Shown here one piece after another: positions 4,424 through 56,800 of a stretch of DNA of 64,000 bases. The notes beneath the pieces are model-generated. The model made no database searches. It saw only the letters and a program-made list of their open reading frames with translations, and had not been told where the DNA came from. Numbering within the stretch: position 1 is the stretch's first letter; every line of letters starts with the position of its first letter. This DNA comes from Alphaproteobacteria bacterium (GTDB taxonomy: Bacteria; Pseudomonadota; Alphaproteobacteria; UBA828). The stretch spans positions 2,301,377 to 2,365,376 of the forward strand of contig OZ244839.1 in the NCBI GenBank assembly GCA_965220825.1, read 5' to 3'. A program made the translations under genes and the position numbers.

Positions 4424-5694
4424 GGGCCGTCTCCATGACGGCGGAGCGCGGCATCGAGCCCGTCGAGGGGCGCCTCCGTCTGCTCGCCGCTCGTGAGGTC
4501 CCGCACCGTGGCGACGCCCCGGTCGAGCTCATCGTCGCCGAGGATTACCGCGGCCGAGGCATGCGCCTGGTCCGCCCGCTTGAGGCGCTTCGAGAGGCTC
4601 CCCCGATAGGTGAGTTCCACCGAATGGCCCGCGCGCCGAAGCGCATCCGCGATACCGAGCGCCGCGGCCTCCGCACGGGCGCCGAGGGGGACGAGTGCAA
4701 TCGGGCGGGGAGACTCGGGCGCCGTGTCCAGAAGAAGCCCCAGGCGTTCGATTCCGCCGGCCCAGCCGACGCCCGGCGTCGGCGCCCCGCCCATGGTTTC
4801 GATCAGGCCGTCATAGCGGCCGCCGGCAAGGACCGCGCCCTGGGCGCCCAGCGCGTCCGTGGTGAACTCGAACGCCGTGTGGCAGTAATAGTCGAGCCCG
4901 CGCACGAGCCGCGGGTTGCGGATGAAGGCGATGCCCAGCCCCTCCAGGCCCGCGCAGACCGCCTCGAAGAAAGCGCCGGCATCGGCGCTGAGATAGGCGT
5001 CGATCCGCGGCGCGTCGGCCATGAGCGCGCGATCGCCCGAGTCCTTGGAGTCGAGGACCCGCAGCGGGTTGCGCGCCAGGCGGACACGGCTTTCCGCCGA
5101 AAGCGCGTCCTCGTTGGCGCGCAGATAGGCGACCAGCGCTTCGCGGTAGGCATGGCGGCTGGCCTCGTCCGCGAGCGTGTTGATCTCGAGCACCGTCTTG
5201 CCGAGCAGTCCGAGCTCGTCGAGCAGGTGGGCTCCGAGCGCGATGGTTTCGATGTCGGCGAGCGGTTCGGCGACGCCGATCAGTTCCACGCCGATCTGGT
5301 GGAACTGGCGGAGCCGGCCCTTCTGCGGCCGTTCGTAGCGGAACATCGGTCCGGCATAGAAACATTTGACCGGAAGGCGCGGGCCGAAAGAGCCCGCGAT
5401 CAACGCGCGCGCGACGCCCGCCGTGTTCTCCGGCCGGAGCGTGACCTCCGCACCGCCGCGATCCTGGAAGGTATACATCTCCTTCGTCACCACGTCGGAT
5501 GTGCCGCCGAGCGTGCGCCGAAACACCTCGGTAAACTCGAAGACGGGCGTGGCGACTTCGGCAAAACCGTAGCGCTCGGCGAGGGCCCTTGCACAGTCGA
5601 CCACGCGGCGGTGGCGGCGCATCGCCTCGCCGGCAAGGACATGGGTTCCGCGGACTGGTTGCAGTTTGGGCACGAACAGATCCTCGAACGTCAC
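4420..5694 (-). CDS. hisS: Histidine--tRNA ligase
   Basis: 424 aa with class II aaRS motifs ([22 protein letters not shown]). The C-terminal anticodon-binding domain is present, which excludes HisZ. Confidence 0.88.
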
Positions 5695-5796
5695 CGCCCC
5701 TCGGGGCGGACTTCAAGGTTTAGCCGATAGCGCCGCTGGCGGCGAGACGGTCCGTGGAACCGTCGACGCGGCGCGGCGTCGGCCGCGGGAAACGCG

Positions 5797-7311
5797 CTAG
5801 CTCTCGGCCAGCAGACGGGCTGTCAGGAGATTCGGGTCGAGCGGAATGTTCCGCAGAACAACGCCGACGGGACCGAGCGGTGGCAGGACCTTGCCGTCGA
5901 CACGCACCTCGAGAGCACCCGCATTGCCCGTCACCATGACAAGGCCCGGACGGTCGGGCACCCGGTAGATGTCACCCGGACGCAGGATGCGGGTCAACAG
6001 AAGTTCGTCGTCGGGCCCCTGCACCTGGACCCAGCTGTCGGCATAGGCCGCGATGACCACCCGGGCGGAGACGTTGCTGCGCCCGTAGACCTGCGGCACA
6101 TGGGCTTCGGCCTCGACCGCTGCGGGGGGCGCCGCGCCTGCATCGGCCGGGGCCGCTGCCTGCGGTTGCGCCTCGGGCGCGGCCGCGCTCTCCGTGGACG
6201 AAGGCGATGCCGGAACGCCGCTCTCGGGCAGCGTTTCGTAATCCAGCGCCGCTTCGATCGCGAGGTCCTGGGTGAAGGCTGCGACCTCGGGGGCCTCGAT
6301 CTCGGAGGCCGCCGGCGGGGTAGCGGCTTCGTTGCCGCCGACGGCTGCATCGGGCGCTCCGGCGGCAAGCGCGGCCTCCGCGCCATCGGCAGGGGCTGCG
6401 ACCGCAGCGGCGGCCGCACCGCTTTCGTCCCTGGCCGCCATATCGACGGTGGAAAGGGCCTCCGCCGGCTCAGGGGCCGCCGTCTCGACTGCCGCTTCGC
6501 GCGTTGCAGGCGGCGATGCGGACGCGACCGTTGATTCTGCTTCCGGCGCAACGAGTTCCTCCGGCGCAACGGCTGCCTCGTCCTCCGGCGGGACCGTTGC
6601 TTCCGGCGCAGAGATCGCCTCTGGCACCTCCGCAACCACTGTTTCCTCCGGTGCAACTGCAACGACTGCCTCCGGCGCGACGGTTGCCGCCGGTGCAACT
6701 GGAGCGACTGCCTCCGGCGCAACCGTTGCAGCCGGAGAGACGGTTGCCGCCGGTGTCGCGGTTTCGCCGGAGGCCGTTTCCTCGCCGCGTCCCACGGTCT
6801 CCGAGAAGCGGTCCGAAACGTCGGCGACCAGATCGGTCGCGACCCGCCCGTCGCTCTCGTAGTACTGCCAGCCGCCATAGGCGAGGCCGGCAAGAATAAG
6901 GGCTAACAGAACCAGCCAGGCCCGGGGCCTCCGGCCCTCTTTGCCGGGCGTTGGGAAGGAGAGATCGGCGCCGCCCGCTTCATGGTCCATCTCGCGTTTG
7001 AAGGCGTCCACCGTCTCCTGAATGTCGAGTTTGAGAAGGCCCGCATAGCTCCGCACGAAGCCCACCGCATAGGTCGCGCCCGGGAGCGCATCGAAGCGGC
7101 CCTCTTCCAACGCCGCCAAGTGGGACTCTTGAATGCGCAGCGTCTGGGCGGCATCGCGCAACTCGTAGCCGGCGCGGAGCCGCGCATCGTGCAGCGTACG
7201 GCACACATCGGGTACGGACCGGCGGTCGCCTTCCTCGACATCCGTCAATATCGGCTGCCCGGACCGAGCCGGCTCCACCGGCGCCCGCCGAAGGTCTCTC
7301 ATCGCTCGCAT
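5797..7311 (-). CDS. rodZ: RodZ-like cytoskeleton protein: N-terminal HTH, TM helix, long Ala/Pro/Glu/Val-rich linker, C-terminal DUF4115
   Basis: HTH segment DVCRTLHDARLRAGYELRDAAQTLRIQESHLAALEEGRF, TM segment WLVLLALILAGLAYGGW, DUF4115-like C-terminus. The exact start (M1 or M4) is uncertain. Confidence 0.65.
   Translation of the reverse strand: MRAMRDLRRAPVEPARSGQPILTDVEEGDRRSVPDVCRTLHDARLRAGYELRDAAQTLRIQESHLAALEEGRFDALPGATYAVGFVRSYAGLLKLDIQETVDAFKREMDHEAGGADLSFPTPGKEGRRPRAWLVLLALILAGLAYGGWQYYESDGRVATDLVADVSDRFSETVGRGEETASGETATPAATVSPAATVAPEAVAPVAPAATVAPEAVVAVAPEETVVAEVPEAISAPEATVPPEDEAAVAPEELVAPEAESTVASASPPATREAAVETAAPEPAEALSTVDMAARDESGAAAAAVAAPADGAEAALAAGAPDAAVGGNEAATPPAASEIEAPEVAAFTQDLAIEAALDYETLPESGVPASPSSTESAAAPEAQPQAAAPADAGAAPPAAVEAEAHVPQVYGRSNVSARVVIAAYADSWVQVQGPDDELLLTRILRPGDIYRVPDRPGLVMVTGNAGALEVRVDGKVLPPLGPVGVVLRNIPLDPNLLTARLLAES
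6290..6800. repeat. Degenerate short tandem repeats (12-18 bp units such as gcctccggcgcaac / ggttgccgccggtg) encoding the A/P/E/V-rich linker of the RodZ-like gene
   Basis: Visible reiterations in the DNA (ctccggcgca acggctgcctcg tcctccggcg ...) and in the protein (ATVAPEAVAPVAPAATVAPEAVVAVAPEE...). Confidence 0.6.
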
Positions 7312-7572
7312 CCCGCGGCCCGCACGCGACTTGCGGCTCCACGCCCGACAGCTTGAACTCCGTCTACCCGGCGTCCCAGATTAAGCAATGCGCGAGCCGT
7401 TTCCCTTGGTGAAGTCTGTCTAAGTTCAAAATTTACACCGCGTTATTCTCTTGCGCAAACAGGATGTACCGTTACGGCCGCATTTTTGTGCGGACGGACG
7501 TTGCGCCGCCGGGCCAATACCCCGTCCTTCGTGATACCGTCTCGGAATCGGCAGGTGAAACCGGAGGATCTG

Positions 7573-8512: not shown

Positions 8513-9706
8513 ATGAACCAGGACAAACTTCTCAAACGGATGTTGCGGAACGACCCCGTGCGCGGCGCCCGGGCCACCCGGCGCCAGGTGCTGCAGGGGC
8601 TGGGTGCCGGCGCGCTCGCGCTTGGCGCCGGAGGGGCGTTCGCCGGCCGGGCCGAGGCGGCGCGCAACCTCGCCATGCTGACATGGGACGGCTATGTGGA
8701 CCCCCGCGTGCTCGACGGCTTTACCGAGCAGCACGGTACGGGGATCGACTACGAACTCCACACCTCCGACCCGGATTCGGTCAACAAGCTCCGCGCCGGC
8801 GAGACCGCCATCTGGGACATCATCAATCTGAACAACCCCTGGGCGCGTGAAATGATGTGGCCCGAAGGGCTCATCGTCGAGCTCGACCGGGCACGGTTCG
8901 ATCCTTATTTCGAAGCGATGCTCCCGATGTTCAAGCCACCCTACAAATGGGCCATGAGCCTCGACAACGAGCATCTCCTCGGCGTCTGCCAGCGGGTGGA
9001 TACCTTCGACTTCGTGGTCAACACCGACGTCATCTCGGCGGAAACGGCGAAGGACGAAGGGTGGAGCCTGTTCGACAATCCGGACATGGCCGGGCGCTAC
9101 GGCATGCTTGCCTACGACAACTGGAACATCATGCATATCTGCATGATCGCGGGCCTCCATCCCTTCAAGGAAAAGACCGACGAGCAGGTCGCCGTTTTCG
9201 AGGAGACGGCGCGGCGCGTGATCAACGGCGCGAAGATGATCTCCGACGATTTCGTCGCCATCAATCTCGGCGTGGTGAACGGCGAGATCGACATGTATTT
9301 CGGCGGCGGGACCTACTCCATCTCGGCGGCACGCCTCGACGGCCTCACCAACCTCTATCACGTGGTGCCGAAGAGCGGCCCGGCGGACGGCAAGGGCGGG
9401 ATCAACTGGATCGAGCTCAGCTCGGTGGTGAACAACCCCGACCTGCACCCCATGGCCATGGACTGGATGGAGTACATCCTCCAGCCCGAGACCTCCTACT
9501 GGGTCGCCACCGCCGGCGGCTTCCTCCTGCCGGTGGGCCAGATGGCACAGCCGGAGCTGCTCGCCAAGTTCACCGCGGAAGAGCTCGATTCCTTCCAGTG
9601 GGACGAGTTCGACTATCGGATCGAGCATTCGGTCGAATATGACGTGGTGCCGGACTACAACCGGCTCTACGACATATATACGGCCGCACGCCGCGAAAAG
9701 GCGTAG
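8513..9706 (+). CDS. ABC transporter periplasmic substrate-binding protein, PotD/PhnS-like, with Tat signal
   Basis: RRQVLQGLGAGALALGAGGAFA twin-arginine signal. PotD-family length and fold motifs. Confidence 0.8.
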   Translation: MNQDKLLKRMLRNDPVRGARATRRQVLQGLGAGALALGAGGAFAGRAEAARNLAMLTWDGYVDPRVLDGFTEQHGTGIDYELHTSDPDSVNKLRAGETAIWDIINLNNPWAREMMWPEGLIVELDRARFDPYFEAMLPMFKPPYKWAMSLDNEHLLGVCQRVDTFDFVVNTDVISAETAKDEGWSLFDNPDMAGRYGMLAYDNWNIMHICMIAGLHPFKEKTDEQVAVFEETARRVINGAKMISDDFVAINLGVVNGEIDMYFGGGTYSISAARLDGLTNLYHVVPKSGPADGKGGINWIELSSVVNNPDLHPMAMDWMEYILQPETSYWVATAGGFLLPVGQMAQPELLAKFTAEELDSFQWDEFDYRIEHSVEYDVVPDYNRLYDIYTAARREKA

Positions 9707-9780
9707 GCTCGGCTCACGGACGGAAGCGGGGCCGCGCGGGTTTTCGCGCGGCCCCGCTCCAGCGCAGATAGAGACCCCCC

Positions 9781-10890
9781 GTGCGGGACGGCGCGGGCAG
9801 GGCGGGGATTCACGGAAACGCCATGGCGAATGCGGCGCCAATCCTGCGCATGGTCGGCCTGACCAGGCAGTACGGCAAATTGCTCGCGGTCAACGACATT
9901 TCCCTCGAGATCGAGGAGGGCGAATTCTTCACCATCGTCGGCCCGTCGGGCAGCGGCAAGACCACGCTCTTGCGCATGCTGGGCGGGCTGGAGAAGCCGA
10001 CGGCGGGGGACATCTTCCTGCGCGACCGGCTGGTCAACGGCGTGCCGGCGAACCGGCGGCCCACCTGCATGGTGTTCCAGTCCCTCGCGCTCTTCAACCA
10101 CAAGACCGTGGGCCAGAACATCGAGTTCTCGCTCAAGATGCGGGGCGAAGCGAGGCGTGCGAGGCGCGAGCGCGGCCTTTCGCTGATGAAGGTGGTCCAG
10201 CTGCCCGAGGATTATTACGACAAGCCCGTCACCAAGTGCTCCGGCGGGGAGCGCCAGCGCGTGGCCCTCGCCCGGGCGCTCGCCTCCGACCCGGACATCC
10301 TGTTCTTCGACGAGCCGCTCTCCGCCATCGACTACCGGCTGCGCAAGCTGCTGGAGGTGGAGCTCAAGGACCTCCATCGCACCACCGGCAAGACCTTCGT
10401 CTACATCACCCACTCCCTCGAGGAGGCCATGGTGATGAGCGACCGGATCGGTATCATGCGGGAAGGCCGGCTCATCCAGATCGGCTCGCCCAACGAGATC
10501 TATCTCCGCCCCCGCAACAAGTTCGTCTCCGAGTTCATGGGCGAGGTGAACACGCTGCCGGTGCGCGCAGGCGCGGACGGCGGGCTCGACTGCCCGGCGT
10601 TCGGCGAGCGCTTCAGAAGCCCCGACCGGCCCGATGGCTTCGACGCCGGCTATCTGGTGATCCGACCGGAATCGGTGCGCTTCCTCAAAGCGCCGGCGGA
10701 CGCCGACAACCACCTTGAGGGGTCGCTCTTCAACGAATACGCGCTGGGCTCCCGGGTCCAGTACCATGTGAGCGTCGGCGACACGATGTTCGTCGTGGAG
10801 AAGCTCCGCGAGCACGCCTACAGGGGTGCGCTGGGCGACAGCGTGCTGATCGGCTGGGACGCCGGGGACAGCGTGCTCGTGACCGACTGA
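9781..10890 (+). CDS. ABC transporter ATP-binding protein (PotA-like)
   Basis: GPSGSGKTT Walker A, LSGGERQRVALARAL signature, FFDEPLSAID Walker B, C-terminal TOBE-like domain. The start may be the internal Met at 9823. Confidence 0.85.
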   Translation: MRDGAGRAGIHGNAMANAAPILRMVGLTRQYGKLLAVNDISLEIEEGEFFTIVGPSGSGKTTLLRMLGGLEKPTAGDIFLRDRLVNGVPANRRPTCMVFQSLALFNHKTVGQNIEFSLKMRGEARRARRERGLSLMKVVQLPEDYYDKPVTKCSGGERQRVALARALASDPDILFFDEPLSAIDYRLRKLLEVELKDLHRTTGKTFVYITHSLEEAMVMSDRIGIMREGRLIQIGSPNEIYLRPRNKFVSEFMGEVNTLPVRAGADGGLDCPAFGERFRSPDRPDGFDAGYLVIRPESVRFLKAPADADNHLEGSLFNEYALGSRVQYHVSVGDTMFVVEKLREHAYRGALGDSVLIGWDAGDSVLVTD

Positions 10891-11795
10891 TGACCAAGCC
10901 GGGAAACGCCGCCGCCCTTTCGTCGCCCGGCGCGCTCACCCTCGTGCTCGGCTGGCTGCGCTCGCCCGGCACTCTCTCCGCGGTGCCGGTGCTGGTGTTC
11001 TTCGTCATCGGCTTCGTGGGGCCGCTGGTGATCGTGCTGGGTTTCAGCTTCATGCCGGAGCGCACCTTCTCGCTCGGCGGCGAGTTCACCACGGAGAACT
11101 ATGGGCGCATCTTCTCCGAGAGCTACTACATCTCCTTCATCTGGTCGTTCGCGCTCGCAGCACTCACCGTCGCGTGCAATCTGCTTATCGGCTATCCCAT
11201 CGCCTACGGCCTCAGCAAGCTGTTCGGACGCTGGGCCGCGCCCGTCACCCTGATCCTGGTGATCCCGCTCTTCGTCTCGGAGAACGTGCGGCTCTTCGGC
11301 TGGTATATCTTCCTGCTGAAGGGCGGCGGGATTCTCGCGGGCGGTCTCAAGACGTTCGGCTTCGATGTGGGCTCCATGCTCTACATGCCGGGCACCATCC
11401 TGATGGGGATGATCTACGTCTATCTGCCGTTCACCCTCTTCCCCATCGTGCTCGGGCTCTCCATGGTGCCGCGGGACCAGGTGGACGCTGCGCGCGATCT
11501 CGGCGCGGGACGCTTCCAGATTTTCCGCGAGATCGAGCTTCCCATCGCCATGCCGGGCATCCTCATCGGCGCGCTGCTTACATTCGTGCTCGCGGTCGGC
11601 GCCATCTCCGAGGCGAAGCTGCTTGGCGGCCAGAACACACCGGTCATCGCGCAGGACATCCAGCACGAGTTCACCTACGCCCAGAACTGGCCGCTGGGCT
11701 CCGCGATCTCCGTCCTGACCATCGCGGTCACGGGCATATTGGTGGTTCTGGTGATGCGCAGGCTCGATCTCGACCGGCTGCTGGGCCGTCGCTGA
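10890..11795 (+). CDS. ABC transporter permease (PotB-like)
   Basis: Multi-TM protein with an EAA-type loop (DAARDLGAGRFQIFREIELP). TGATG overlap with the ATPase gene. Confidence 0.8.
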   Translation: MTKPGNAAALSSPGALTLVLGWLRSPGTLSAVPVLVFFVIGFVGPLVIVLGFSFMPERTFSLGGEFTTENYGRIFSESYYISFIWSFALAALTVACNLLIGYPIAYGLSKLFGRWAAPVTLILVIPLFVSENVRLFGWYIFLLKGGGILAGGLKTFGFDVGSMLYMPGTILMGMIYVYLPFTLFPIVLGLSMVPRDQVDAARDLGAGRFQIFREIELPIAMPGILIGALLTFVLAVGAISEAKLLGGQNTPVIAQDIQHEFTYAQNWPLGSAISVLTIAVTGILVVLVMRRLDLDRLLGRR

Positions 11796-11822
11796 GACCG
11801 GCGGCGGAAATCGGGCGCGAAG

Positions 11823-12626
11823 ATGGAGAGAAAACGCTGGGTGGTGAGCCTGATCGCGGTGTGGACGGCGGCGATCATGCTCTTCCTCTATATCCCCATC
11901 TTCTCGGTGATCGTGAGCTCCTTCGGCAAGTCGCGCTATTTCCGCTTCCCGGTGAAGGCGTGGAGCGACAAGTGGTACGACCAGACACTCGGCGCGAACC
12001 TGACCGCGGACCTGCACCTCACCTCGTTCTACGTGGCGGGCTGCGTCGCCCTCATCGCCACGGTGCTGGGGTTTTTCGGCGCGCTCGCCTTCGCCCGCTA
12101 CAACTGGCGCGGGCGCCGCTTCTATCAGCGGCTCATCATGCTGCCGATCTTCTTCCCGCAAGCGGTCCTCGGCCTCGCGCTGTTGCTGTGGTTCACCTAT
12201 GTGGGGGTCCTGCCGAGCTGGGAAGCGGCGGTCTTCGCACATCTGGTCTGGATCGTTCCCATCGTGACGCTGGTGATCTCGATCCAGGTCTACGGCTTCG
12301 ATGCGGCGCAGGAGGAAGCCGCCTACGATCTCGGCGCGAACCGCTGGCAGGCCTTCCGCGAGGTGACGTTCCCGGCGCTTGCGCCAGGGCTCCTCTCCGG
12401 CGCGCTCTTCGCCTTCCTGCTCTCCTGGGGCAACTTTCCGCTTTCCACCTACACGACCGGCGCCGACAGCACGGTGACGGAGTGGCTCTATACCAAGATG
12501 GGCTCGGGCTACACGCCCATGATCCCCACCATGGGCGCGCTCTCGGTGTTCGGCGCGGTGGTCATCCTGTTCGGCGGCTACATGTTTCTTATCGTCCGCC
12601 GGCGCCGAGGGGAGCGGGCGGGATAG
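11823..12626 (+). CDS. ABC transporter permease (PotC-like)
   Basis: Multi-TM protein with an EAAYDLGANRWQAFREVTFP loop. Confidence 0.8.
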   Translation: MERKRWVVSLIAVWTAAIMLFLYIPIFSVIVSSFGKSRYFRFPVKAWSDKWYDQTLGANLTADLHLTSFYVAGCVALIATVLGFFGALAFARYNWRGRRFYQRLIMLPIFFPQAVLGLALLLWFTYVGVLPSWEAAVFAHLVWIVPIVTLVISIQVYGFDAAQEEAAYDLGANRWQAFREVTFPALAPGLLSGALFAFLLSWGNFPLSTYTTGADSTVTEWLYTKMGSGYTPMIPTMGALSVFGAVVILFGGYMFLIVRRRRGERAG

Positions 12627-12759
12627 AACGGGACGGAAAAAGCCCGAGAGCGCCAAGAGGGAGTTGTCTCGCGGGCCGCATCACGGTCTAATCCGCTTCG
12701 TGCGGGGCGCGGGGCGCGCGTCCTGCGGTACGGGGGATCTGCGCGACAGGGAGCGGCCC

Positions 12760-13059
12760 ATGGCCTACCAAATCACCGACAAGGATCTGGACGTCGTCGA
12801 CGAGTTCATGGCGAAGCCGATCGGGCATCACAGCCCGAACCTCCAGCGCGTGCTGAACACGCTGCGCGGCGTCGACATCAAGGGCAAGCACTGCCTGGTC
12901 TGCACCAAGCCGGGCCGGGAGTGGCGGCTCGCCCAGCTCTCGGGCGTTCGCGGCAAGTCCGTCAAGCTGCTCGACAAGACCTTTGACAATATCGACGACG
13001 CGGAGCGCCACGTCTTCCGCCTCCGCTGGAAGCAGCACACCGGCAAGGCACTGCCCTAG
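12760..13059 (+). CDS. Hypothetical 99-aa protein. Possible small subunit partner of the downstream DMFase-like protein.
   Basis: MAYQITDKDLDVVDEFMAKPIGHH... preceded by a GGGAG RBS. No family recognised. Same strand as, and 80 bp upstream of, the large LamG-like gene. Confidence 0.4.
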   Translation: MAYQITDKDLDVVDEFMAKPIGHHSPNLQRVLNTLRGVDIKGKHCLVCTKPGREWRLAQLSGVRGKSVKLLDKTFDNIDDAERHVFRLRWKQHTGKALP

Positions 13060-13138
13060 CCGGAACCGCCGCGGACGCGGCACCCTTCATGAACGACGAA
13101 CAGCGATCGGCCGCGGCGGCGGCAGGGGAGAGCGAAGA

Positions 13139-15388
13139 ATGACCAAAATCGCGGGCTACGCGGATCGCGTCAGCGCGGCGCCCGGAGAAACCATCAGCTT
13201 CATGGTGAGCTCCGAGGCACCCTCCTACAAATGCGATATCGTTCGCATCATTTGCGGCGACGAGAACCCGAACGGGCCGGGCGTCAAGGAGCAGGTGGTC
13301 CGGACTCCGGCGAACGGAACCTACAAAGGCCGCAGGCAGGTCTGCTACGACGGCTCCTTCCTGGAGGTTCCGGCCCATCGGGCAATCCAGGGCCTGAAGA
13401 GCTTCACCTTCCAGGCCTTCATCTGGCCCACGACGCCGGATCGCGGCACCCAGGCGCTGATCGCCAACTGGCGCGACCGCGACAAGGCGGGCGCCGCCCT
13501 GATCATCACCAAGCAGAACGGCTCGCTCGCACTCTGTCTCGGCGACGGCAAGGGCAAGATCGAGGTCATCGCCACGAACCGGCCGCTGATCCCACACGAG
13601 TGGTACTTCGTCGCGGCGAGCTACGATGCGAAGTCGAAGCAGGTCGTCCTGGTGCAGCAGCCGCTCAAGGAATACCCCAAGGTGGCCCATGGCGGCATCG
13701 CGCGGAAGAAGTCCACGCTCAGAGCGCCCGGCAAGCACGATGCGCCCCTGACCATGGGGGCTTACTTCCGGCGCGTGGACAAGGGCCGCACCGTCTGCAA
13801 CGGGTTCTACAACGGGCGGATCGACAGCCCCCGAATCGCGAACCGGGCACTGAGCCTCGCCGAGATGGAACTCGCCAAGACGAGCCCCGGCGCCGAAGCG
13901 CTCGGCGATGCGATCGTCGGCGCCTGGGACTTCTCGCAAGGGATCACCACCACGCAAGCGGTGGACACCTCCCCCAACGGGCTCGACGGCAAGCTGGTCA
14001 ATCTGCCGACGCGGGCCGTCACCGGGTGGAACTGGGACGCCAGCGAGATGAACTGGCGGAACGCGCCGGAGCAATATGGCGCCATCCACTTCCATGAGGA
14101 CGATCTCTACGACGCCGGCTGGGAAGTGGATTTTTCCCTCACCGTGCCGAAGCGTCTGAAGAGCGGGGTCTATGCCGCACGCCTGCGGGGCGGCGGTTCG
14201 GAGGAGTACGTCCCCTTCGCCGTCCGCGCACCCCGCGGCGCTCCCACGGCGAAGATCTGCTTCCTGCTGCCGACCGCGAGCTATATGGCCTACGCCAACA
14301 CCAACATGGCGACCGATATCGGCGCGGCGCAGCTTCTCGCCGGCCGGCTCGCCGTCCTCAACGAGAAGAACCTGCAGCGCAACGCGCACCGGGAATATGG
14401 CACCTCGCTCTATGACAGCCATATCGACGGCAGCGGGATCTGCTATTCGTCGCGGCTCCGGCCCATCCTCAATTTCCGCCCGAAGGCACTGGAGTGGATC
14501 GGCGGGACGGAGTCCACCCTCTGGCAGTTCAATGCCGACACGCACCTCACCGACTGGCTCGAGGCGCGGGGCTTCGACTATGACGTGGTGACCGACGAGG
14601 ATCTCCACTATGAGGGCCTCTCGGCGATCCAGGACTACCGGGTTGTGCTCTCGGGCTCCCACCCCGAATACCATTCGAAGGCGATGTGGGACGCCATGGA
14701 CGCCTACCAGAAGCGCGGCGGGCGGCTGATGTATATGGGCGCCAACGGCTGGTACTGGCGCATCGCCTTCCACACCGAGGTGCCAGGCTGCATCGAGGTG
14801 CGCCGCGCCGAGGACGGAATCCGCACCTGGATTGCGCGCCCGGGCGAGTACTATCACAGCTTCACCGGCGAGTATGGCGGGCTCTGGCGGCGCAACGGCC
14901 GCCCGCCCCAGCTCATCACCGGCGCCGGCTTCACCGCCCAGGGCTTCGACATCTCGTCCTACTATGTGCGCCAGCCGGACAGCTTCAAAAAAGAGGTCGA
15001 CTGGATATTCAAGGGGATCGGAAAGGACGAGAAGATTGGCGATTTCGGACTGATCGGGGGCGGCGCTGCGGGTCTCGAGCTCGACCGCGCGGACCCGCTC
15101 CTCGGCACGCCGCCCAATGCCTATGTGCTGGCGAGTTCGGAGGGCCACACCGATCTCTATCTGGTGGTGTGCGAAGAGCTGGACGTGAACCGGCCCAATG
15201 CCGACGGCACCCAGGATCCGCTGGTCCGCGCCGACATCGTGTTCTACGAGACGGCGAACGGCGGAGCGGTGTTCTCCACCAGCTCCATCGCCTGGTGCGG
15301 GAGCCTCGCGCACAACAATTACAAAAACAACGTCTCCCGCATGACGGAAAACGTCCTGCGCCGCTTCGCCGACCCGAAACCCTTCTGA
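13139..15388 (+). CDS. N,N-dimethylformamidase large (beta) subunit-like protein: LamG-like jellyroll plus class-I glutamine-amidotransferase-like fold
   Basis: 749 aa. LamG motif TMGAYF...FYNGRIDSPRIANRALSLAEMELA. C-terminal DYRVVLSGSHPEYHSKAMWDAMDAYQKRGGRLMYMGANGWYW GATase1-like segment. The size matches DmfA2-family proteins. Start at the internal MTKIAGYADR, with RBS. Confidence 0.5.
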   Translation: MTKIAGYADRVSAAPGETISFMVSSEAPSYKCDIVRIICGDENPNGPGVKEQVVRTPANGTYKGRRQVCYDGSFLEVPAHRAIQGLKSFTFQAFIWPTTPDRGTQALIANWRDRDKAGAALIITKQNGSLALCLGDGKGKIEVIATNRPLIPHEWYFVAASYDAKSKQVVLVQQPLKEYPKVAHGGIARKKSTLRAPGKHDAPLTMGAYFRRVDKGRTVCNGFYNGRIDSPRIANRALSLAEMELAKTSPGAEALGDAIVGAWDFSQGITTTQAVDTSPNGLDGKLVNLPTRAVTGWNWDASEMNWRNAPEQYGAIHFHEDDLYDAGWEVDFSLTVPKRLKSGVYAARLRGGGSEEYVPFAVRAPRGAPTAKICFLLPTASYMAYANTNMATDIGAAQLLAGRLAVLNEKNLQRNAHREYGTSLYDSHIDGSGICYSSRLRPILNFRPKALEWIGGTESTLWQFNADTHLTDWLEARGFDYDVVTDEDLHYEGLSAIQDYRVVLSGSHPEYHSKAMWDAMDAYQKRGGRLMYMGANGWYWRIAFHTEVPGCIEVRRAEDGIRTWIARPGEYYHSFTGEYGGLWRRNGRPPQLITGAGFTAQGFDISSYYVRQPDSFKKEVDWIFKGIGKDEKIGDFGLIGGGAAGLELDRADPLLGTPPNAYVLASSEGHTDLYLVVCEELDVNRPNADGTQDPLVRADIVFYETANGGAVFSTSSIAWCGSLAHNNYKNNVSRMTENVLRRFADPKPF

Positions 15389-15403
15389 GCCGGGAGCTGC
15401 GCC

Positions 15404-16162
15404 ATGAGCAAGCCGACCGTTCTGATCACCGGCGCCGGCATCGGAATCGGTGAGGCCACGGCGCTCGCCTTCGCCGACGCGGGCTATCACGTCTACGTCA
15501 CCGACGTGCTCGACGAAGAGGGCCGGGAGACCGTCTCGGCCATCGAGGCGAAGGGCGGCAGTGCGAGCTTTACCCGTGTCGACGTGACCGACAGCGCCAA
15601 TGTGGACGCGGCCGTTGCCGCCGCCATTGCCGCCACGGGGCCGCTGGACGCGGTGGTCGCCAATGCGGGCATCGCCCACAAGGTGCCGCTGCCCGAAATG
15701 AGCGACGAAAAGTGGGACCACACGCTGGATGTGGACCTCAAGGGCGTGTTTCGCGTCTGCCGCGCGGCGGCGCCCGCCATGCGCGAAGCGAAGCGCGGCG
15801 CCATGGTGGCGGTCTCCTCGGTGATGGGGACGAGCTATGGCTGGCACGACCATGTGCAGTACAACGCCGCCAAGGCCGGTGTGGTCGGCCTGGTGCGGGG
15901 GCTCGCCTGCGACCTCGGCGGCGACGGTATCCGCGTCAACGGGATCGCGCCCGGCTTCATCAAGACGGCGCAGGCGCTTTCCACCGTGCACTCGGTGGGG
16001 CTCGCGGGGCTGGAGGCGGCGGCCGACTATATTCCGCTCGGCCGCTACGGCGAGGCGGAGGACATCGCCTCCGTCATCCTCTTCCTCTGTTCCGACGGCG
16101 CGCGCTATGTGAGCGGCCAGACGCTGATCGTGGACGGCGGCCTCACCGTCGGCCGCTATTGA
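15404..16162 (+). CDS. SDR family oxidoreductase
   Basis: TGAGIGIGEA Rossmann motif, NAGI, YNAAK catalytic motif. Confidence 0.85.
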   Translation: MSKPTVLITGAGIGIGEATALAFADAGYHVYVTDVLDEEGRETVSAIEAKGGSASFTRVDVTDSANVDAAVAAAIAATGPLDAVVANAGIAHKVPLPEMSDEKWDHTLDVDLKGVFRVCRAAAPAMREAKRGAMVAVSSVMGTSYGWHDHVQYNAAKAGVVGLVRGLACDLGGDGIRVNGIAPGFIKTAQALSTVHSVGLAGLEAAADYIPLGRYGEAEDIASVILFLCSDGARYVSGQTLIVDGGLTVGRY

Positions 16163-16183
16163 CGGCAGCCGCTACGCGGGCGC

Positions 16184-16795
16184 TCAGCGGCCGGCGTCCT
16201 CTCCCAGCACGGCGCGGCGGAAGCGGTCCTTCAGATAGGGGCCGTTGCGCGGCGGCAGTACCCGGGGCAGCGGCTCGGCCCTGACCTTCACGGCAAGGAA
16301 GGTGGGACCCGGCGCCTCGTGGACGAGCGCAAGCGCGCCCTCGAGCCCGGCTTCGTCGGCGACCGTCCGCGCCTCCCGGAAGCCCGCGGCCTCGGCGGCG
16401 CGGGCAAGGTCCGCGCCATAGGCCGTGTGGCTCGGCTGCATGCCCGTCTCGCCGTGGCGTTCATTGTCGAGGACCGCGATCGCGAGGTTCTCCGGCGCCT
16501 GGGTCGCGACGGTGGCGAGGCAGCCGAGGCCCATCAACATGTCGCCGTCTCCGGTGAGCACCACCACGCGCCGGGCGGGCTGCGCCAGCGCGAGGCCGAG
16601 CCCGATCATGGACGCATTGCCCATGGCGCCCCACAGCGAGAAGTGGCGCACATTGTCGCCGAGGGCGGCGCAGTCCCAGGTCGCGGAGCCGAGACCCGGG
16701 ATCACCAGCGTATCCTCCCGGCCTTCGAGCAGCATCGCCACCGCTTCGCGCCGGCCGAGCGTGGTGGCGGGTTGGCTTCGCGCCCGGGCGTTCAT
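16184..16795 (-). CDS. comE: Sulfopyruvate/phosphonopyruvate decarboxylase beta subunit (ComE-like, TPP-binding C-terminal domain)
   Basis: GDGDMLMGLGCLATVA...NLAIAVLDNERHGETGMQ TPP-binding GDG-x-N motif. ~203 aa. ATGA overlap with the alpha subunit gene. The ORF-track ORF at 16184..17077 is a spurious extension. Confidence 0.7.
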   Translation of the reverse strand: MNARARSQPATTLGRREAVAMLLEGREDTLVIPGLGSATWDCAALGDNVRHFSLWGAMGNASMIGLGLALAQPARRVVVLTGDGDMLMGLGCLATVATQAPENLAIAVLDNERHGETGMQPSHTAYGADLARAAEAAGFREARTVADEAGLEGALALVHEAPGPTFLAVKVRAEPLPRVLPPRNGPYLKDRFRRAVLGEDAGR

Positions 16796-17319
16796 CGCGT
16801 CTCGAAGCGTTTCGCGCCGATCACGCGCTGTCCGATCAGGACGGCGGCTGCGGCTTCGCTCTCGAAGGCGAGCGCGGCGGCCGCGGCGACGGTCTCGCCG
16901 GTGTCGGCCTCGTCGTCCACCCGCGAGACGATCACGCCGCATTGCGTGAGGTGCGCCGCGGCCCCCTGACCCATGGGAAGCTGCCAGGGATTGGTCTCGC
17001 CCCATTCGCCCCGCATGGTCACCAGGGCGAGAAACGGAAAGAGGCAGCTGCGGATCAGCGATAGAGCGGCGACGCAATTGCCGACGCCGCTCGACTGCAT
17101 CAGCAGCACCGCGCGCTCGCCGCCGAGCCAGGCGCCGGCGGCGAGCGCCGGGCCTTCCTGCTCATGGGCGAGGAGAACCGGGCGCATGGCGGGGTCGGCA
17201 TGGCAGAGCGCGAGCAGCCCGTCGAGACCCGCATCCGGCACATAGGCGACTTGCCGAACGCGGGCGTCCGCGAGCGCGCGATGGGCCTGCGCGCCCCAGC
17301 CGCACCGGGGAGCGCTCAC
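16792..17319 (-). CDS. comD: Sulfopyruvate/phosphonopyruvate decarboxylase alpha subunit (ComD-like, TPP pyrimidine-binding domain)
   Basis: VAYVPDAGLDGLLAL...LAHEQEGPALAAGAWLGGERAVLLMQSSGVGNCVAAL, typical of the TPP enzyme N-terminal domain. 175 aa. Confidence 0.7.
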   Translation of the reverse strand: MSAPRCGWGAQAHRALADARVRQVAYVPDAGLDGLLALCHADPAMRPVLLAHEQEGPALAAGAWLGGERAVLLMQSSGVGNCVAALSLIRSCLFPFLALVTMRGEWGETNPWQLPMGQGAAAHLTQCGVIVSRVDDEADTGETVAAAAALAFESEAAAAVLIGQRVIGAKRFETR

Positions 17320-17984
17320 GCGCCGGCGCTCGAAGCGTCGCCGGCGGCTTCCGCCGTCGCACCGCCCGCCCGCCCGGAGCCCGGGGCCATGCGGCAGAGC
17401 ATGGATAGCGTCCGGTCCAGGCGCCGGAGCCGGCGGTCGAGTGCCGCCATCGTGCTGGCCATGTCCGGGCTGTCGTCGCGCAGCCAGACGGGGAGGACGG
17501 AGAGATAGAGGGCGGCGAGCGCCTCCGCGCGGAACCGGCCGCGAAGGCCTGCGCTGCCGAGGCCCGCGGCTTCCAGCATCCAGCCCATGGAGCGGTGGAG
17601 CGCGAGCCGCCCGCAGACCAGCGCCGCCGGGTCCGGCGCGCCGCTTCGCAGGATCGCGCGAACCGCTTCCTTGTGTTCATTCAGCGCATCGAAACGCCGC
17701 ATCAGCACGTCGAAGAGGCGTTCCGGCGCCGGCCGTCCGGCCATCTCGGGATCGCGATCGGACAGCACCGTGCGGTCGATGCGTGCCGCGTACCCCGCCA
17801 GGATGGCGTTCCTCGAGGGGAAGAGGGCGCGGAGTTCGTCGAGAGAGAGTCCCGCCTCCTCGGCGATGTCGGCAAGGCTCACGCGCGACCAGCCCTCGCG
17901 CGCGGCGAGCGCCAGGGCGCCGTCGATGACGGTATCGCGGGGATCCGGCGGCGGTTTGGATTTGGGTGCCGCCTTCCTAGCCAT
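17316..17984 (-). CDS. TetR/AcrR family transcriptional regulator
   Basis: N-terminal HTH REGWSRVSLADIAEEAGLSLDELRALFPSRNAIL. The stop overlaps the comD start. Confidence 0.8.
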   Translation of the reverse strand: MARKAAPKSKPPPDPRDTVIDGALALAAREGWSRVSLADIAEEAGLSLDELRALFPSRNAILAGYAARIDRTVLSDRDPEMAGRPAPERLFDVLMRRFDALNEHKEAVRAILRSGAPDPAALVCGRLALHRSMGWMLEAAGLGSAGLRGRFRAEALAALYLSVLPVWLRDDSPDMASTMAALDRRLRRLDRTLSMLCRMAPGSGRAGGATAEAAGDASSAGA

Positions 17985-18051
17985 GATCCGATCCTCCCGC
18001 GTCGCCGCCGGTCAAGTCTAGGCCCGGCCGAAACCGCCGGTCAATCGCTTG

Positions 18052-18240
18052 TCCTCGTTCAGGACGTTTGCGACGCCGGGGTTTCTTCGGCCGTCAGGTT
18101 GGCAAGCTATTCGGCCGACCTTTGTCCGCAAACTGCCCCTTTTTGGTGCGCGGGTCTCCAGGCCCGCGCACCAAACTTGTCATTGGGGTCTCCCAACCTC
18201 GTTTCAAGAGCCGCGTCTCATAGCTGTCTGAACGTGCACA
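18052..18240 (+). mobile_element. IS-derived MITE-like repeat, copy 1 (shortened: the internal hairpin is collapsed to a 10-bp stem)
   Basis: Shares the left end tcctcgttcaggacgtttg(a/c)gacgc, the core ggtttcttcggccgtcaggttggcaagctattcggcc, the hairpin arm ggtgcgcgggtctccaggcccgc and the right end ccaacctcgtttcaagagccgcgtctcata(g/c)ctgtctgaac with copies at 19573-19868 and 55452-55784. Confidence 0.7.
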
Positions 18241-18258
18241 TCGTCCCGGGGCGGGCGG

Positions 18259-19482
18259 CTAGAGCGCTTCGCCGCGGGCGAGGCGGGGCTGGCGGCCCAG
18301 CACGCCCATGGCGTGGCGCATGAAGAGGCGCTTCAAGGGCGGGAGTTCGTTCACCGCCGCGAGGCTCAGGTCGCGGCCGGCGCGCAAGATGTCGCTCTCG
18401 TTCGAAAACAGGCGGTTCAGCCCGTCCGTGACGGCGACAAGCGCCGTGGAATCAAAGCGGCGCCGGCGCTGGTAGCGGGCGAGCAGGTCGTCCGCGCCGG
18501 GGTCGAGGCCGAGCCGCACATGGTCCACCACCAGTTCGGCGAGCTCGGCGACATCGCGGAGCCCCAGATTGAAACCCTGGCCGGCGATGGGGTGGATGGC
18601 GCGGGCCGCGTCCCCGATGAGCGCGAGGCGGGGCGCGGTAAAGCGGTGGGAAACGCTGAGCGCCAGCGGATAGCTCCAGCGCGGGCCGACCGGCTCCAGG
18701 GCGCCGAGAAAATCCCCGAAGCGCGTACCGAGCTCCTCTGCGAAACGCGCCTCGTCCGCCGCCATCATGATGGGCGCCACGTCCGCACGCTCGGTCCACA
18801 CCAGGGAAGAGCGATTGCCGCGCATGGGCAGGATGGCGAAGGGGCCCGCCGGCAGGAACCGCTCATGGGCGATACCCCGGTGCGGGCGCTCGTGGGCCAC
18901 GGCGCAGACGATGGCCGTCTGCCCGTAGGGCCGGCTCCACGCCTCGATTCCGGCGCCGGCGCGGAGCGCCGAATTGGCCCCGTCGGCGGCAATGGCGAGC
19001 CGCGCGGCGATACTGCGCCCGTCGGCGAGCCGGGCCTCGGTGCGCACCCCGCCGGGGACCAGCGCCGTCACGGAGGCGGGCGCAAGGTGGCGGAGTGCCG
19101 GCAGGTTTGCGGCGCGGTCCAAGAGGGCTGCGCGCAGGGCGCGGTTCTCGACAATGAAACCCAGAGGCCCGCCACCCACCAGCGCGCCGTCATAATGAAG
19201 GAAGAGCGGGGCCTCGCCGTCCGACACGCGGATTTCGAGGATGGGCTCCGCCTCCGCCTCGAGCGCCGGCCAGACTCCGAGGCCCGCCAGCACGCGCTGG
19301 GAGCCGAGGGCGATGGAGGAGACCCGCCCGTCGAACGCCGCGGCGCGCAGACGCTCCGGCGGATGGCCGTCCACGACCACCGTCTCGCACCCGGCGCCCG
19401 CAAGGGCCGTACCCATGGCAAGCCCCGCGAGCCCGCCACCCACGATGACGGCCTCCGCCTCGATCCGCGCCGCCTCCGCCAT
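18259..19482 (-). CDS. ubiH: FAD-dependent ubiquinone biosynthesis hydroxylase (UbiH/UbiF/VisC/Coq6 family)
   Basis: VIVGGGLAGLAMG dinucleotide-binding motif, DG motif, GDAARAIHPIAGQGFNLGLRD flavin monooxygenase fingerprint. Confidence 0.8.
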   Translation of the reverse strand: MAEAARIEAEAVIVGGGLAGLAMGTALAGAGCETVVVDGHPPERLRAAAFDGRVSSIALGSQRVLAGLGVWPALEAEAEPILEIRVSDGEAPLFLHYDGALVGGGPLGFIVENRALRAALLDRAANLPALRHLAPASVTALVPGGVRTEARLADGRSIAARLAIAADGANSALRAGAGIEAWSRPYGQTAIVCAVAHERPHRGIAHERFLPAGPFAILPMRGNRSSLVWTERADVAPIMMAADEARFAEELGTRFGDFLGALEPVGPRWSYPLALSVSHRFTAPRLALIGDAARAIHPIAGQGFNLGLRDVAELAELVVDHVRLGLDPGADDLLARYQRRRRFDSTALVAVTDGLNRLFSNESDILRAGRDLSLAAVNELPPLKRLFMRHAMGVLGRQPRLARGEAL

Positions 19483-19572
19483 GCCCGTACCGCTCCGCCG
19501 GCAACATCGCCGTAACGCCGCATGCTAGGGCGCTTATCCCGCCGTGAAAACCGCCGTGCCCGCAGATCGGTC

Positions 19573-19868
19573 GTGCAAGTTCAAACAGGTACGAGACGGG
19601 GCTCGTGAAACGGGTTTTGGGCTCTCCGAAGCTGTCGGTGGACACATCAACCGCTTCGGAGACCCCATGGTCGGTTTGGTGCGCGGGTCTCCAGGCCCGC
19701 ATGTTTTTGTTTTTCGAGAAGAAGAAAAATGCGGGCCTGGAGACCCGCGCACCAAAAAAAGGGGCAGCGCGTTGGGGCGACGCGCGACCGCCCATAACGC
19801 CGGCGGAATATTTTTCCAACCTGACGGCCGAAGAAACCTCAGCGTCTCAAATGTCCTGAACGAGGAGA
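19573..19868 (-). mobile_element. IS-derived MITE-like repeat, copy 2 (inverted relative to copies 1 and 3). Full 23-bp-arm hairpin at 19678-19753.
   Basis: The reverse complement matches copy 1/3 end to end. Hairpin ggtgcgcgggtctccaggcccgc-N30-gcgggcctggagacccgcgcacc. Flanked by the direct repeat (G)ATCGGT on both sides. Confidence 0.7.
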
Positions 19869-19958
19869 TCGGTTTGGAGGGCGGTGGCCGGGCGGCTACA
19901 CTCGGCGCGCCGGGAGCGGCTGCGGAGCTCCCGGCCTTGCGCGTGGAGAGGGTAGGCC

Positions 19959-34443: not shown

Positions 34444-34469
34444 CGGTGCGGAGCGCGCCCGGAGGCCGG

Positions 34470-34543
34470 TGGGCCCGGCAGGACTCGAACCTGCAACAAC
34501 GCCGTTATGAGCGGCGGGTTCTAACCAATTGAACTACGGGCCC
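34470..34543 (-). tRNA. tRNA-Met (anticodon CAU, elongator type; could be tRNA-Ile2 if lysidinylated)
   Basis: Minus-strand fold GGGCCCG-TAGTTCAATTGGTTAGAAC-CGCCG-CTCATAA-CGGCG-TTGTTG-CAGGTTCGAGTCCTG-CGGGCCC-A. The paired 1:72 position argues against an initiator tRNA. The CCA end is not encoded. Confidence 0.85.
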
Positions 34544-55380: not shown

Positions 55381-55451
55381 GGCCGCTCCCGCAGGAAAAG
55401 ATTGCGCGCCGCGCCATCATATCGGCGGCGCCGGGCCAGGATAAGGGGCTG

Positions 55452-55784
55452 TCCTCGTTCAGGACGTTTGAGACGCTGGGTTTTTTTCGGCTGTCACGTT
55501 GGCAAGCTATTCGGCCGGGGTTTGTCCGCCAAGCGCCAGGTTGGGTCTGATGGTATTGAACGCGTCGGCGAAGGCGTCGCCCCAACGCGCTGCCCTTTTT
55601 TTCGGTGCGCGGGTCTCCAGGCTCGCATTTTTCTTCTCCTCGAAAACAAAAACATGCGGGCCTGGAGACCCGCGCACCAAACCAAAGATGATGGTTTTCT
55701 CGAGGTCGATGTGTCCACCAACCGCGCCGGAGACCCCCAACCTCGTTTCAAGAGCCGCGTCTCATACCTGTCTGAACTTGCGCA
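55452..55784 (+). mobile_element. IS-derived MITE-like repeat, copy 3 (most complete). Hairpin at 55604-55678. The transposase C-terminal tail remnant is readable on the minus strand.
   Basis: The minus-strand translation ends ...AFNTIRPNLALGGQTPAE*, the canonical tail of rve-type (IS3/IS481-like) transposases. TIR-like ends ctcgttcaggacgtttgagacgc / gcgtctcatacctgtctgaac. Confidence 0.7.
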
Positions 55785-55807: not shown

Positions 55808-56800
55808 TCAGGCGGCGTTGCGGCTCTCCGGGCCCGGCGGAGGCAGGAGCGCGAGCGCCGCCTCCACCACTTCGGCGCCTGCACCGGGGCGGGCGCCGTC
55901 GCGGGTGAGCGTGCGCCGCCAGGCGCGGGCGCCCGGCGTGCCTGCGAAGAGCCCCAGCATGTGGCGCGCGATACGGTGGAGCGGAACGCCTGCCGCGCGC
56001 TGCCGGCCGATATAGGGCAGCATGGCCCGCGCCGCCGCGCGGCGGTCCGGCGGGGCGTGCGAGAAGACACCGAAGATGCGGCCGTCCGCCGCAGCCAGCA
56101 TGGCCGGATCCCCATAGGCGGCGCGGCCGATCATCACGCCGTCCACTTGGGCGCGATGCGCTTCCGCCGCCGCGAGGCTTGTCACGCCGCCGTTCAGCAC
56201 GATCTCGAGCGCCGGCAAATCCTGCTTCAGGCGATAGACGTCCTCATAACGGAGCGGCGGCACCTCGCGGTTCTGCGCCGGCGTAAGCCCGCCGAGCACG
56301 GCGATTCGGGCGTGGACGGCGAAGCTCCGGACGCCGGCGGCGGCCACCGTCTCCACGAAGGACTTGAGATCCCCATAGGCGCCGCGCCCCTCGATGCCGA
56401 TGCGGCACTTGACCGTCACCGGCAGGTCCACCGCACCCGCCATGGCACCGACGCAGCGCGCCACCAGAGCGGGCTCGGCCATGAGCGCCGCACCGAAGCG
56501 GCCCGCCCGCACCCGGTCGCTCGGACAACCCACATTGAGGTTGATCTCGTCATAACCGAAGGCCTGGCCGATCTCGGCGGCACGGGCGAGGGCCTCCGGC
56601 TCGGACCCGCCGAGCTGGAGCGCGAGCGGGTGCTCCGCCGGATCGAAGCCGAGCAACCGCTCACGCTCCCCGTGAAGCACGGCCGCCGCCGTCACCATCT
56701 CCGTATAGAGCAGCGTGCGCCGCGTGAAGAGCCGCAGGAAATACCGCCCGTGCCTGTCCGTCCGCGCCATCATGGGCGCAACGCTCAGCCTGCGGTCCAT
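55808..56800 (-). CDS. dusA: tRNA-dihydrouridine(20/20a) synthase
   Basis: MDRRLSVAPMMARTDRHGRYFLR, NLNVGCP, KCRIG motifs. 331 aa. The upstream part of the 840-aa track ORF is artefact. Confidence 0.85.
   Translation of the reverse strand: MDRRLSVAPMMARTDRHGRYFLRLFTRRTLLYTEMVTAAAVLHGERERLLGFDPAEHPLALQLGGSEPEALARAAEIGQAFGYDEINLNVGCPSDRVRAGRFGAALMAEPALVARCVGAMAGAVDLPVTVKCRIGIEGRGAYGDLKSFVETVAAAGVRSFAVHARIAVLGGLTPAQNREVPPLRYEDVYRLKQDLPALEIVLNGGVTSLAAAEAHRAQVDGVMIGRAAYGDPAMLAAADGRIFGVFSHAPPDRRAAARAMLPYIGRQRAAGVPLHRIARHMLGLFAGTPGARAWRRTLTRDGARPGAGAEVVEAALALLPPPGPESRNAA

Follow-up and report, generated by a model that had tools for sequence, protein, structure and literature searches.

A probable IS481-derived family of miniature transposable elements, with two separate insertions around a ubiH-family gene

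Results

Two inverted copies of one repeat bracket a ubiH-family gene

We analyzed a 64-kb stretch of the chromosome of an alphaproteobacterium (contig OZ244839.1, positions 2,301,377 to 2,365,376; called the window below), in which a gene for a FAD hydroxylase of the ubiH/ubiF/visC/COQ6 family, here ubiH, lies between two inverted copies of a short repeat. [quoted passage not shown] MITEs are non-autonomous deletion derivatives of insertion sequences (ISs) (PMC10969869). Repeat finding and blastn within the window identified three copies of the repeat, c1, c2 and c3, which together explain about 820 bp of its otherwise unassigned intergenic sequence as transposon relics. The positions first assigned to c1 and c2 were correct to 1–2 bp; c3 was absent from that list. 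In the lists below, the strand given for a copy is the one on which the ancestral transposase would be read, and features given without a strand are unstranded.

18050–18240, minus strand: MITE copy c1, 191 bp, internally deleted; nhmmer E=1.4e-44; sharp boundaries in alignment with c2 and c3
18259–19482, minus strand: ubiH/ubiF/visC/COQ6-family FAD hydroxylase gene, bracketed by c1 and c2
19572–19868, plus strand: MITE copy c2, 297 bp, inverted relative to c1; nhmmer E=2.8e-90; in the divergent ubiH/isochorismatase intergenic region
55450–55784, minus strand: MITE copy c3, 335 bp, more complete than c1 and c2; nhmmer E=2.5e-109

The boundaries of the repeat are sharp. In a three-way alignment of c1, c2 and c3 with their flanks, similarity begins abruptly at T(G/C)TCCTCGTTCAGG and stops abruptly at CTGAAC(T/G)TGC(A/G)C(A/G), and outside these points the three loci have nothing in common. 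The two terminal motifs, allowing up to 3 mismatches, matched at only three places in the window against 0 expected from 100 shuffles, and all five occurrences of the 18-nt core of the internal hairpin fell inside the three copies. An nhmmer profile built from all copies found no further MITE fragment in the window.

The product of the bracketed gene matched the UbiH/UbiF/VisC/COQ6 model TIGR01988 at 407 bits against a cutoff of 225, and its named database matches mark the host as an alphaproteobacterium with Rhodospirillales-like relatives. Eighteen base pairs separate the end of c1 from the ubiH stop codon (18259–18261), and 89 bp separate the ubiH start (19482) from c2, as first reported. 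Copy c1 occupies the space that separates the ubiH stop codon from the start of a TetR-like gene (TetR_N), downstream of which comes a pair of sulfopyruvate/phosphonopyruvate-decarboxylase-like genes (match below cutoff); beyond c2 lies a divergent isochorismatase-family gene. Matches to family models bear out all of these gene calls, which had been made from the letters and translations. Copy c3 sits between a hydantoinase A gene (53281–55380, minus strand) and an open reading frame (ORF) with a Dus domain (55808–58330, minus strand).

The host chromosome carries at least 13 copies

Six further copies or fragments, c4 to c9, were recovered through spurious ORFs called over them. They are listed here with the coordinates of the loci in which they lie; the two ends of an element are its left and right inverted repeats (IRL and IRR), collectively the terminal inverted repeats (TIRs).

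c4, locus L020, about 9973–10207: cut just after the central palindrome
c5, locus L023, 9911–10339: full, 429 bp, retaining more of the transposase gene
c6, locus L022, 1–247: cut by the contig end
c7, locus L025, 8062–8385: full
c8, locus L024, 9969–10110: palindrome with about 45 nt beside it, lacking TIRs
c9, locus L024, 5012–5180: IRR side only, cut within palindrome arm 1

Nine distinct spurious ORFs over MITE copies (P0123, P0124, P0126, P0127, P0131, P0138, P0141, P0156 and P0162) are recorded on the 3,279,725-bp host chromosome, the contig that also encodes the UbiH of the window (P0001), and each of them differs from the window copies. Together with the three copies in the window and c9, they bring the family to at least 13 copies on this chromosome. 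The copies are 80–90% identical in pairwise comparison (82% for c1 and c2), and several are truncated. At L024, a CRISPR array (about 10150–14700; repeat ATTTCCGGGGCGTAATTGCCCCGGCCTCATTGAAGC) with cas2 and cas4 nearby (14790–16820) is abutted at its cas-distal end by the c8 fragment; the MITE ORF from this locus, P0126, is the one also recorded on the 3.28-Mb host contig.

Outside the host chromosome, the family was seen only in two ENA assemblies (ERZ26695461 and ERZ25072670), with identical or near-identical copies. An exact-pattern scan for the IRR-side TIR in 185,579 GTDB species-representative genomes, a set that does not include the host genome, gave 10 chance singletons with no extended similarity. 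Scanning JGI metagenomes with the palindrome core returned 5 chance matches only, and neither an exact-pattern scan of IMG/VR nor blastn against the PLSDB plasmids found a MITE copy.

Imperfect terminal repeats and 5-bp target duplications mark separate insertions

The ends of the family read TGTCCTCGTTCAGG and TGTGCAAGTTCAGAC. TIRs had been proposed for c1 and c2, and these are genuine if imperfect: 23 of 33 aligned positions match, including the cores GTTCAG and TGAGACGC.

18050–18076: c1 terminal repeat, IRR side, TGTCCTCGTTCAGGACGTTTGCGACGC
18213–18240: c1 terminal repeat, IRL side, ...GCGTCTCATAGCTGTCTGAACGTGCACA
19572–19599: c2 terminal repeat, IRL side
19842–19868: c2 terminal repeat, IRR side, terminus mutated from ACA to AGA

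TGT forms the left terminus of c1, c3, c6 and c9 and of the related elements at loci L021 and L026 (see below); c2, c4, c5 and c7 have mutated forms of it. At the right terminus, c1, c5 and c7 read ACA, c3 reads GCA and c2 reads ACG. Mutated terminal triplets found among the copies are TCT, TAT, TGG and CGT.

With the register of the target-site duplication (TSD) fixed by the homology boundaries (TGT...ACA), we compared the 5-bp flanks of the five copies that have both ends.

19567–19571: left TSD of c2, TCGGT (plus strand), matching the right copy at 5/5 positions
19869–19873: right TSD of c2, TCGGT (plus strand), matching the left copy at 5/5 positions
c2 flanks read on the minus strand: ACCGA / ACCGA, 5/5
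c7 (L025) flanks: CCGGG / CCGGG, 5/5
c5 (L023) flanks: TTGGA / TTAGA, 4/5
c1 flanks: TCGCT (18045–18049) / TCGTC (18241–18245), 3/5, a decayed TSD
c3 flanks: GGGGC / GGGTA, 3/5

These flanks match at 20 of 25 positions, where about 7 are expected from composition (binomial P=1.4e-7), and off-register comparisons gave 2–14 matches of 25, typically about 7. Registers with a 3–4-bp TSD plus two variable bases, or with a 7-bp TSD, were dropped in favor of 5 bp once c5 and c7 had been added. A direct repeat (G)ATCGGT previously noted around c2 is indeed present at 19565–19571 and 19867–19873, but the true TSD is the 5-mer TCGGT; the 7-bp version is too long because its first two bases on the right belong to c2's own mutated terminus (AGA for ACA).

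The same flanks bear on the resemblance of the ubiH locus to a composite transposon. The layout itself is real: c1 and c2 are inverted, point their IRR-side ends outward and closely flank a single gene, and MITE- or TIME-flanked segments are known to move (Szuplewska et al. 2014, PMC4133298). If the c1–ubiH–c2 unit were or had been a composite transposon, with the two MITE copies as outer ends and ubiH as the cargo they brought in, composite transposition would have left the inner and outer flanks of c2 unrelated. We found them identical, with TCGGT on both sides (5/5, or 7/7 counting the mutated terminus), the signature of a single-element insertion, rather than one TSD around the whole unit with unrelated inner flanks. 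The outermost 5-bp flanks are also alike, TCGCT to the left of c1 and TCGGT to the right of c2 (4/5), a match that is not specific, since TCG opens all four flanks. The neighborhood of ubiH differs among its nearest relatives, as might be expected for mobile cargo; however, ubiH synteny is not conserved even among relatives without the element, and its absence therefore carries no weight. In addition, c1 and c2 are only 82% identical, the G+C content of ubiH is that of its neighbors (70–75%), and no cognate transposase was seen. The composite layout therefore stands as a layout only, and we consider a composite origin extremely unlikely. Because c2 has its own perfect TSD, we conclude that c1 and c2 inserted separately.

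The parent element was probably an IS481-family insertion sequence

No copy contains a transposase gene; what the copies retain are broken remnants of one, within elements of 191, 297 and 335 bp in the window and 324–429 bp elsewhere. The clearest remnant in the window lies in c3, whose reverse strand encodes a peptide ending in ...RWGDAFADAFNTIRPNLALGGQTPAE and a stop, resembling the extreme C-terminus of an rve-type DDE transposase.

55510–55602, minus strand: c3 transposase C-terminal remnant, ..RWGDAFADAFNTIRPNLALGGQTPAE followed by a premature stop

In other copies, the transposase frame runs on to ..LANLTAEETPASQTS before its stop and ends inside the IRR. An exhaustive HMMER search with the 31-residue c3 peptide against 1.84 billion representative proteins returned two informative proteins, P0122 and P0123. 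The latter is a spurious ORF over a further MITE copy. The former is an rve_3 fragment from another organism with the tail RWIDAFADEFNTFRPHQALGGQTPEQYLAKHAAEEPPPSHRS, and this tail aligns with the MITE frame past the premature stop of c3 (AEYLANLTAEETPASQTS versus EQYLAKHAAEEPPPSHRS, the other copies having ...AEYLANLTAEETPASQTS and then a stop), indicating that the ancestral ORF ended inside the terminal repeat. A third protein from this search, P0121 (2221 aa), was discarded as a repeat-summation artefact.

Searches with alignments of the spurious ORFs extended this result. They found rve_3 proteins of about 113 aa in other genomes, from which the C-terminal half of the ancestral enzyme could be rebuilt: MPFPIxAIQVDGGSEF...PPRSPKLNGHVERNNGAWRYEFY...RWIDAFADEFNTFRPHQALGG.TPA.YL. 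The longer relatives matched the NCBIfam IS481 model (NF033577) more strongly than the IS3 model (2.7e-22 versus 9.4e-5 for P0143, and 1.2e-19 versus 1e-10 for P0128), which identifies the parent as an IS481-family element.

A second line of evidence came from L026, on a 3.52-Mb contig of another organism. This locus holds the 3' end of the gene for a 343-aa HTH_32+rve+rve_3 transposase, two 5'-truncated copies of that IS and a 353-bp internally deleted mini-element with both ends. The IRL side of the MITE aligns with the L026 element through the IS left end, the stem-loop of its 5' untranslated region (5'UTR), the transposase ATG and the next codons (ATG-nnn-GGT-TTR-G). Direct alignment of the ends gave 27/32 matches for the IRR and 20/32 for the IRL; DNA identity is about 79% over the 130 nt on the IRR side, and the nhmmer profile of the MITE covers positions 2–324 on the L026 mini-element. 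Since the IRR and IRL sides each align with this element, both ends of the repeat in the window are ends of an IS481-type IS. Among other high-GC genomes, related IS481-like elements are present at L021 and L026, again with an identity of about 79% across 130 nt on the IRR side. IS481-family elements have a TGT terminus and a short TSD within a range of 4–15 bp (ISfinder descriptions), which the TGT...ACA termini and 5-bp TSD of the repeat fit.

A parent from the IS3 family, whose elements have two ORFs joined by a frameshift, would share TG...CA termini with IS481, and the shortest remnants hardly separate the two families: the P0122 tail gave 4.6e-6 on the IS3 model versus 8.1e-6 on the IS481 model, and the window peptide 0.13 versus 0.065. 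Against such a parent stand the longer relatives P0143 and P0128 with their preference for IS481, the TGT terminus and 5-bp TSD, and the related full-length gene at L026, which is one 343-aa ORF with the HTH_32+rve+rve_3 layout of IS481. We therefore regard an IS3 parent as very unlikely and an IS481 parent as the reading to keep.

The true parent IS with matching TIRs was not found. A tblastn search of plasmids with the transposase fragment gave matches of at most 57% identity, mostly to Thermus genes annotated as 'integrase core domain' and in one case to an annotated IS481-family transposase, with no close named IS among them; a literature search for IS481-derived MITEs yielded nothing specific.

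Several broken IS481-like elements were encountered along the way. At L021, a dead IS481 remnant (9640–10385, containing P0122) lies between a tRNA-like sequence/phage-integrase island and a glycine-cleavage operon (gcvT). The rve_3-only ORFs of about 113 aa that start with MPFPI recur in several genomes and are the C-terminal halves of broken IS481-like genes. The two 5'-truncated copies at L026 (4463–5351 and 7649–8015) are inverted and flank an asparagine synthase gene (5627–7351), a bracketing like that at ubiH. Beside one of them is nested the 353-bp mini-element, which consists of an IRL, an HTH N-terminus, a C-terminal tail and an IRR, with no palindrome.

A conserved palindrome replaces the middle of the transposase gene

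Inside the repeat, the most prominent feature is a central palindrome, preceded in c2 by the remnant of the IS leader.

19618–19667, plus strand: c2 stem-loop (inverted repeat) from the ancestral IS 5'UTR, ending at the ancestral transposase ATG (19667–19669), placed by alignment with the L026 element
19675–19756: c2 central palindrome, each arm a 7-bp GC hairpin GCGGGTCTCCAGGCCCGC followed by a T-run
55600–55681: c3 central palindrome
18142–18175: c1 collapsed palindrome, 15-bp stem and 4-nt loop, no T-runs

The whole palindrome folds as a 28-bp perfect stem at -60 to -70 kcal/mol (z about -9.7). In a consensus-pattern scan, GCGGGTCTCCAGGCCCGC followed by ATGTTTTTGT or ATTTTTCTTC was terminator-like on both strands of c2 and c3, so that two hairpins face each other across a spacer; the motif GGTCTCC/GGAGACC occurs four times per full element, in both hairpins. 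In c1, a deletion between CCCGC repeats took out the T-rich spacer together with the inner half of each arm.

Arm 1 begins at the transposase start codon (MVGLVRGSPGPHV in the MITE versus MQGLGLPRHV in L026) and, judged from this similarity, appears to derive from the first dozen or so transposase codons. As arm 2 is an inverted copy of arm 1, the palindrome would have originated in an inverted duplication that accompanied the formation of the internal deletion. Copy c5 and P0127 retain mid-gene leftovers, ..HLDKLHADMPFPVNAIQID, that match P0143. The spacer of c5 (L023, about 10040–10075) is inverted relative to that of all other copies, as expected from recombination between the arms. The palindrome also looks like a fragile site, because 3 of 9 copies (c4, c8 and c9) end at or in it.

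No other part of the family is as well conserved as the arms. Mean pairwise identity is 98% in arm 1 and 95% in arm 2, compared with 87–88% in the TIRs and 73–78% in the other segments. This conservation, the terminator-like patterns on both strands and the one TIR-less occurrence beside a CRISPR array (c8) would also suit a regulatory or structural repeat of the host, such as a repetitive extragenic palindrome/bacterial interspersed mosaic element (REP/BIME)-like unit, a small RNA gene or a terminator cassette, spread by recombination and not a transposon relic at all. Such an origin leaves unexplained the TIRs of full copies with their TGT/ACA termini, the 5-bp duplications that flank these copies, and the presence of transposase coding remnants at one end and an IS 5'UTR and start codon at the other. 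Moreover, c8 has additional upstream sequence in common with c9 and c5 and is therefore a truncated copy, not a separate module, and no Rfam family reached threshold. The Rfam matches that did appear were sub-threshold microRNA-precursor models, which fit any long hairpin, and were dismissed. We find a host-repeat origin the least credible of the alternatives considered, and continue to read the repeat as an IS481-derived MITE.

Within an IS481-derived MITE, the high conservation of the arms would be accounted for most economically by selection for a role as terminator or insulator. The palindrome might even be a selected, portable bidirectional terminator/insulator, or another site used by the host, that the MITE family seeded into intergenic regions. 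This would account for arms that remain 95–98% identical while the TIRs drifted to 87–88%, and we put it forward tentatively, as a possibility that is on balance unlikely.

Possible effects of the copies on neighboring genes

The divergent starts of ubiH and the isochorismatase gene lie 476 bp apart; c2 fills 297 bp of this space, leaving each gene 85–90 bp of original upstream sequence, and puts the predicted convergent terminator-like hairpins between the two genes. Copy c1 lies between co-directional genes, ubiH and the tetR-like gene. The initial annotation had suggested that the insertions could alter expression; besides the terminator-like palindrome, pattern scans found a sole sigma-70-like match near c1, at 18044–18015 on the minus strand and just outside the element, and one weak promoter-like site in c3, inside the UTR remnant. 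If the palindromes terminate transcription, full copies such as c2 and c3 insulate their neighbors, and the collapsed c1 would not.

Two further features of the window were noted. The TetR-like gene directly downstream of ubiH (17316–17984, minus strand) gave weak COQ9-family matches (Pfam PF08511, E=3.4e-5; TIGR02396, below cutoff), which, at the level of sequence similarity, hints at a link of this regulator to ubiquinone biosynthesis rather than a generic TetR role. The sole RNA gene found in the window by Rfam and ARAGORN is tRNA-Met (CAT), at 34468–34543 on the minus strand.

Discussion

The evidence presented here favors, with a probability of about 0.9, a repeat that descends as a MITE from an IS481-family insertion sequence and was moved in trans, with c1 and c2 as separate old insertions. 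The original suggestion of an IS-derived MITE is borne out by sharp ends, imperfect TIRs, a 5-bp TSD, the lack of a transposase gene, at least 13 copies and ends homologous to those of IS481-family elements. Read in the direction of the transposase, a full copy is made up of eight parts.

Part 1: IS left end, about 28 bp, starting TGTGCAAGTTCAGACAGGTATGAGACGC
Part 2: IS 5'UTR with its stem-loop
Part 3: start codon of the transposase gene with about a dozen codons, apparently the source of palindrome arm 1
Part 4: AT-rich spacer
Part 5: arm 2, an inverted copy of arm 1
Part 6: remains of the central part of the transposase gene, which vary between copies
Part 7: last 25–40 transposase codons
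Part 8: IS right end, ...GCGTCTCAAACGTCCTGAACGAGGACA, which contains the original stop codon

Such copies would have been moved by an rve-type DDE transposase acting in trans and leaving 5-bp target duplications, as the TIRs and TSDs suggest. Copies c1 and c2 are separate old insertions, one in each intergenic region beside ubiH. The 80–90% identity, mutated termini and truncated copies show a family that is now decaying, and it is probably immobile. The likeliest present effect of a full copy would be to stop transcription entering from either side; c1, without the T-rich spacer, would be without this feature.

A number of observations weigh against this account. The remnant in the window is weak by itself, matching Pfam rve_3 over 47–67 of 67 positions at E=0.025 and NCBIfam IS481 over 260–282 of 284 positions at E=0.065, with IS3 at E=0.13, and the assignment to IS481 depends on relatives outside the host genome. 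For that genome, protein searches that also missed the L026 transposase turned up no intact cognate enzyme; movement in trans is what we infer, and the family may be wholly dead. The TSDs of c1 and of c3 match at only 3/5 positions. No empty site offers a comparison: the nearest UbiH relatives are 74% and 66% identical and lie in unrelated neighborhoods that also differ from each other. For the palindrome, the terminator role is a match to a consensus pattern only, and no compensatory changes back an RNA structure, the changes being too few for such a test.

For annotation, the gain is a family of at least 13 host copies with defined ends, a defined TSD length and a parent IS family. Two separate insertions that happened to fall on either side of ubiH give the locus its composite look, and ubiH therefore need not count as mobile cargo. 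Of most biological note are the two convergent terminator-like hairpins with their strong conservation. MITEs and terminator-like interspersed repeats such as SPRITE (PMC10969869) are already known, and the present repeat is of an ordinary kind; we regard the conserved convergent-terminator-like palindrome, its one unusual feature, as a modest curiosity.

The family can be set beside four kinds of known system. With IS481-family ISs (NF033577; the L026 element) it shares homologous termini, the 5'UTR stem-loop, the start codon and a C-terminal tail that enters the IRR, as well as TGT termini and a 5-bp TSD; it differs in having lost about 0.8 kb of the transposase gene, with the palindrome in its place. 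Like composite transposons and MITE- or TIME-flanked mobile segments (PMC4133298), the ubiH locus has two inverted copies flanking a cargo gene, but c2 with its own TSD is an independent insertion, and there is no evidence that the c1–ubiH–c2 unit moved. Like the bacterial MITEs reviewed in PMC10969869, the elements are small (190–430 bp), with TIRs, a TSD and no transposase gene, and they have many diverged copies, an intergenic placement and strong internal secondary structure; unlike those, this family retains recognizable remnants of coding sequence from either end of the transposase gene and was not found beyond the host lineage in the collections scanned. SPRITE and similar interspersed repeats are likewise small, with internal hairpins that resemble or act as terminators or processing sites and can affect neighboring genes (PMC10969869; PMC3049150). 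They have no sequence relationship to the present family and belong to another host phylum, whereas here the convergent hairpin pair, terminator-like by pattern, forms one long palindrome within an IS481 derivative.

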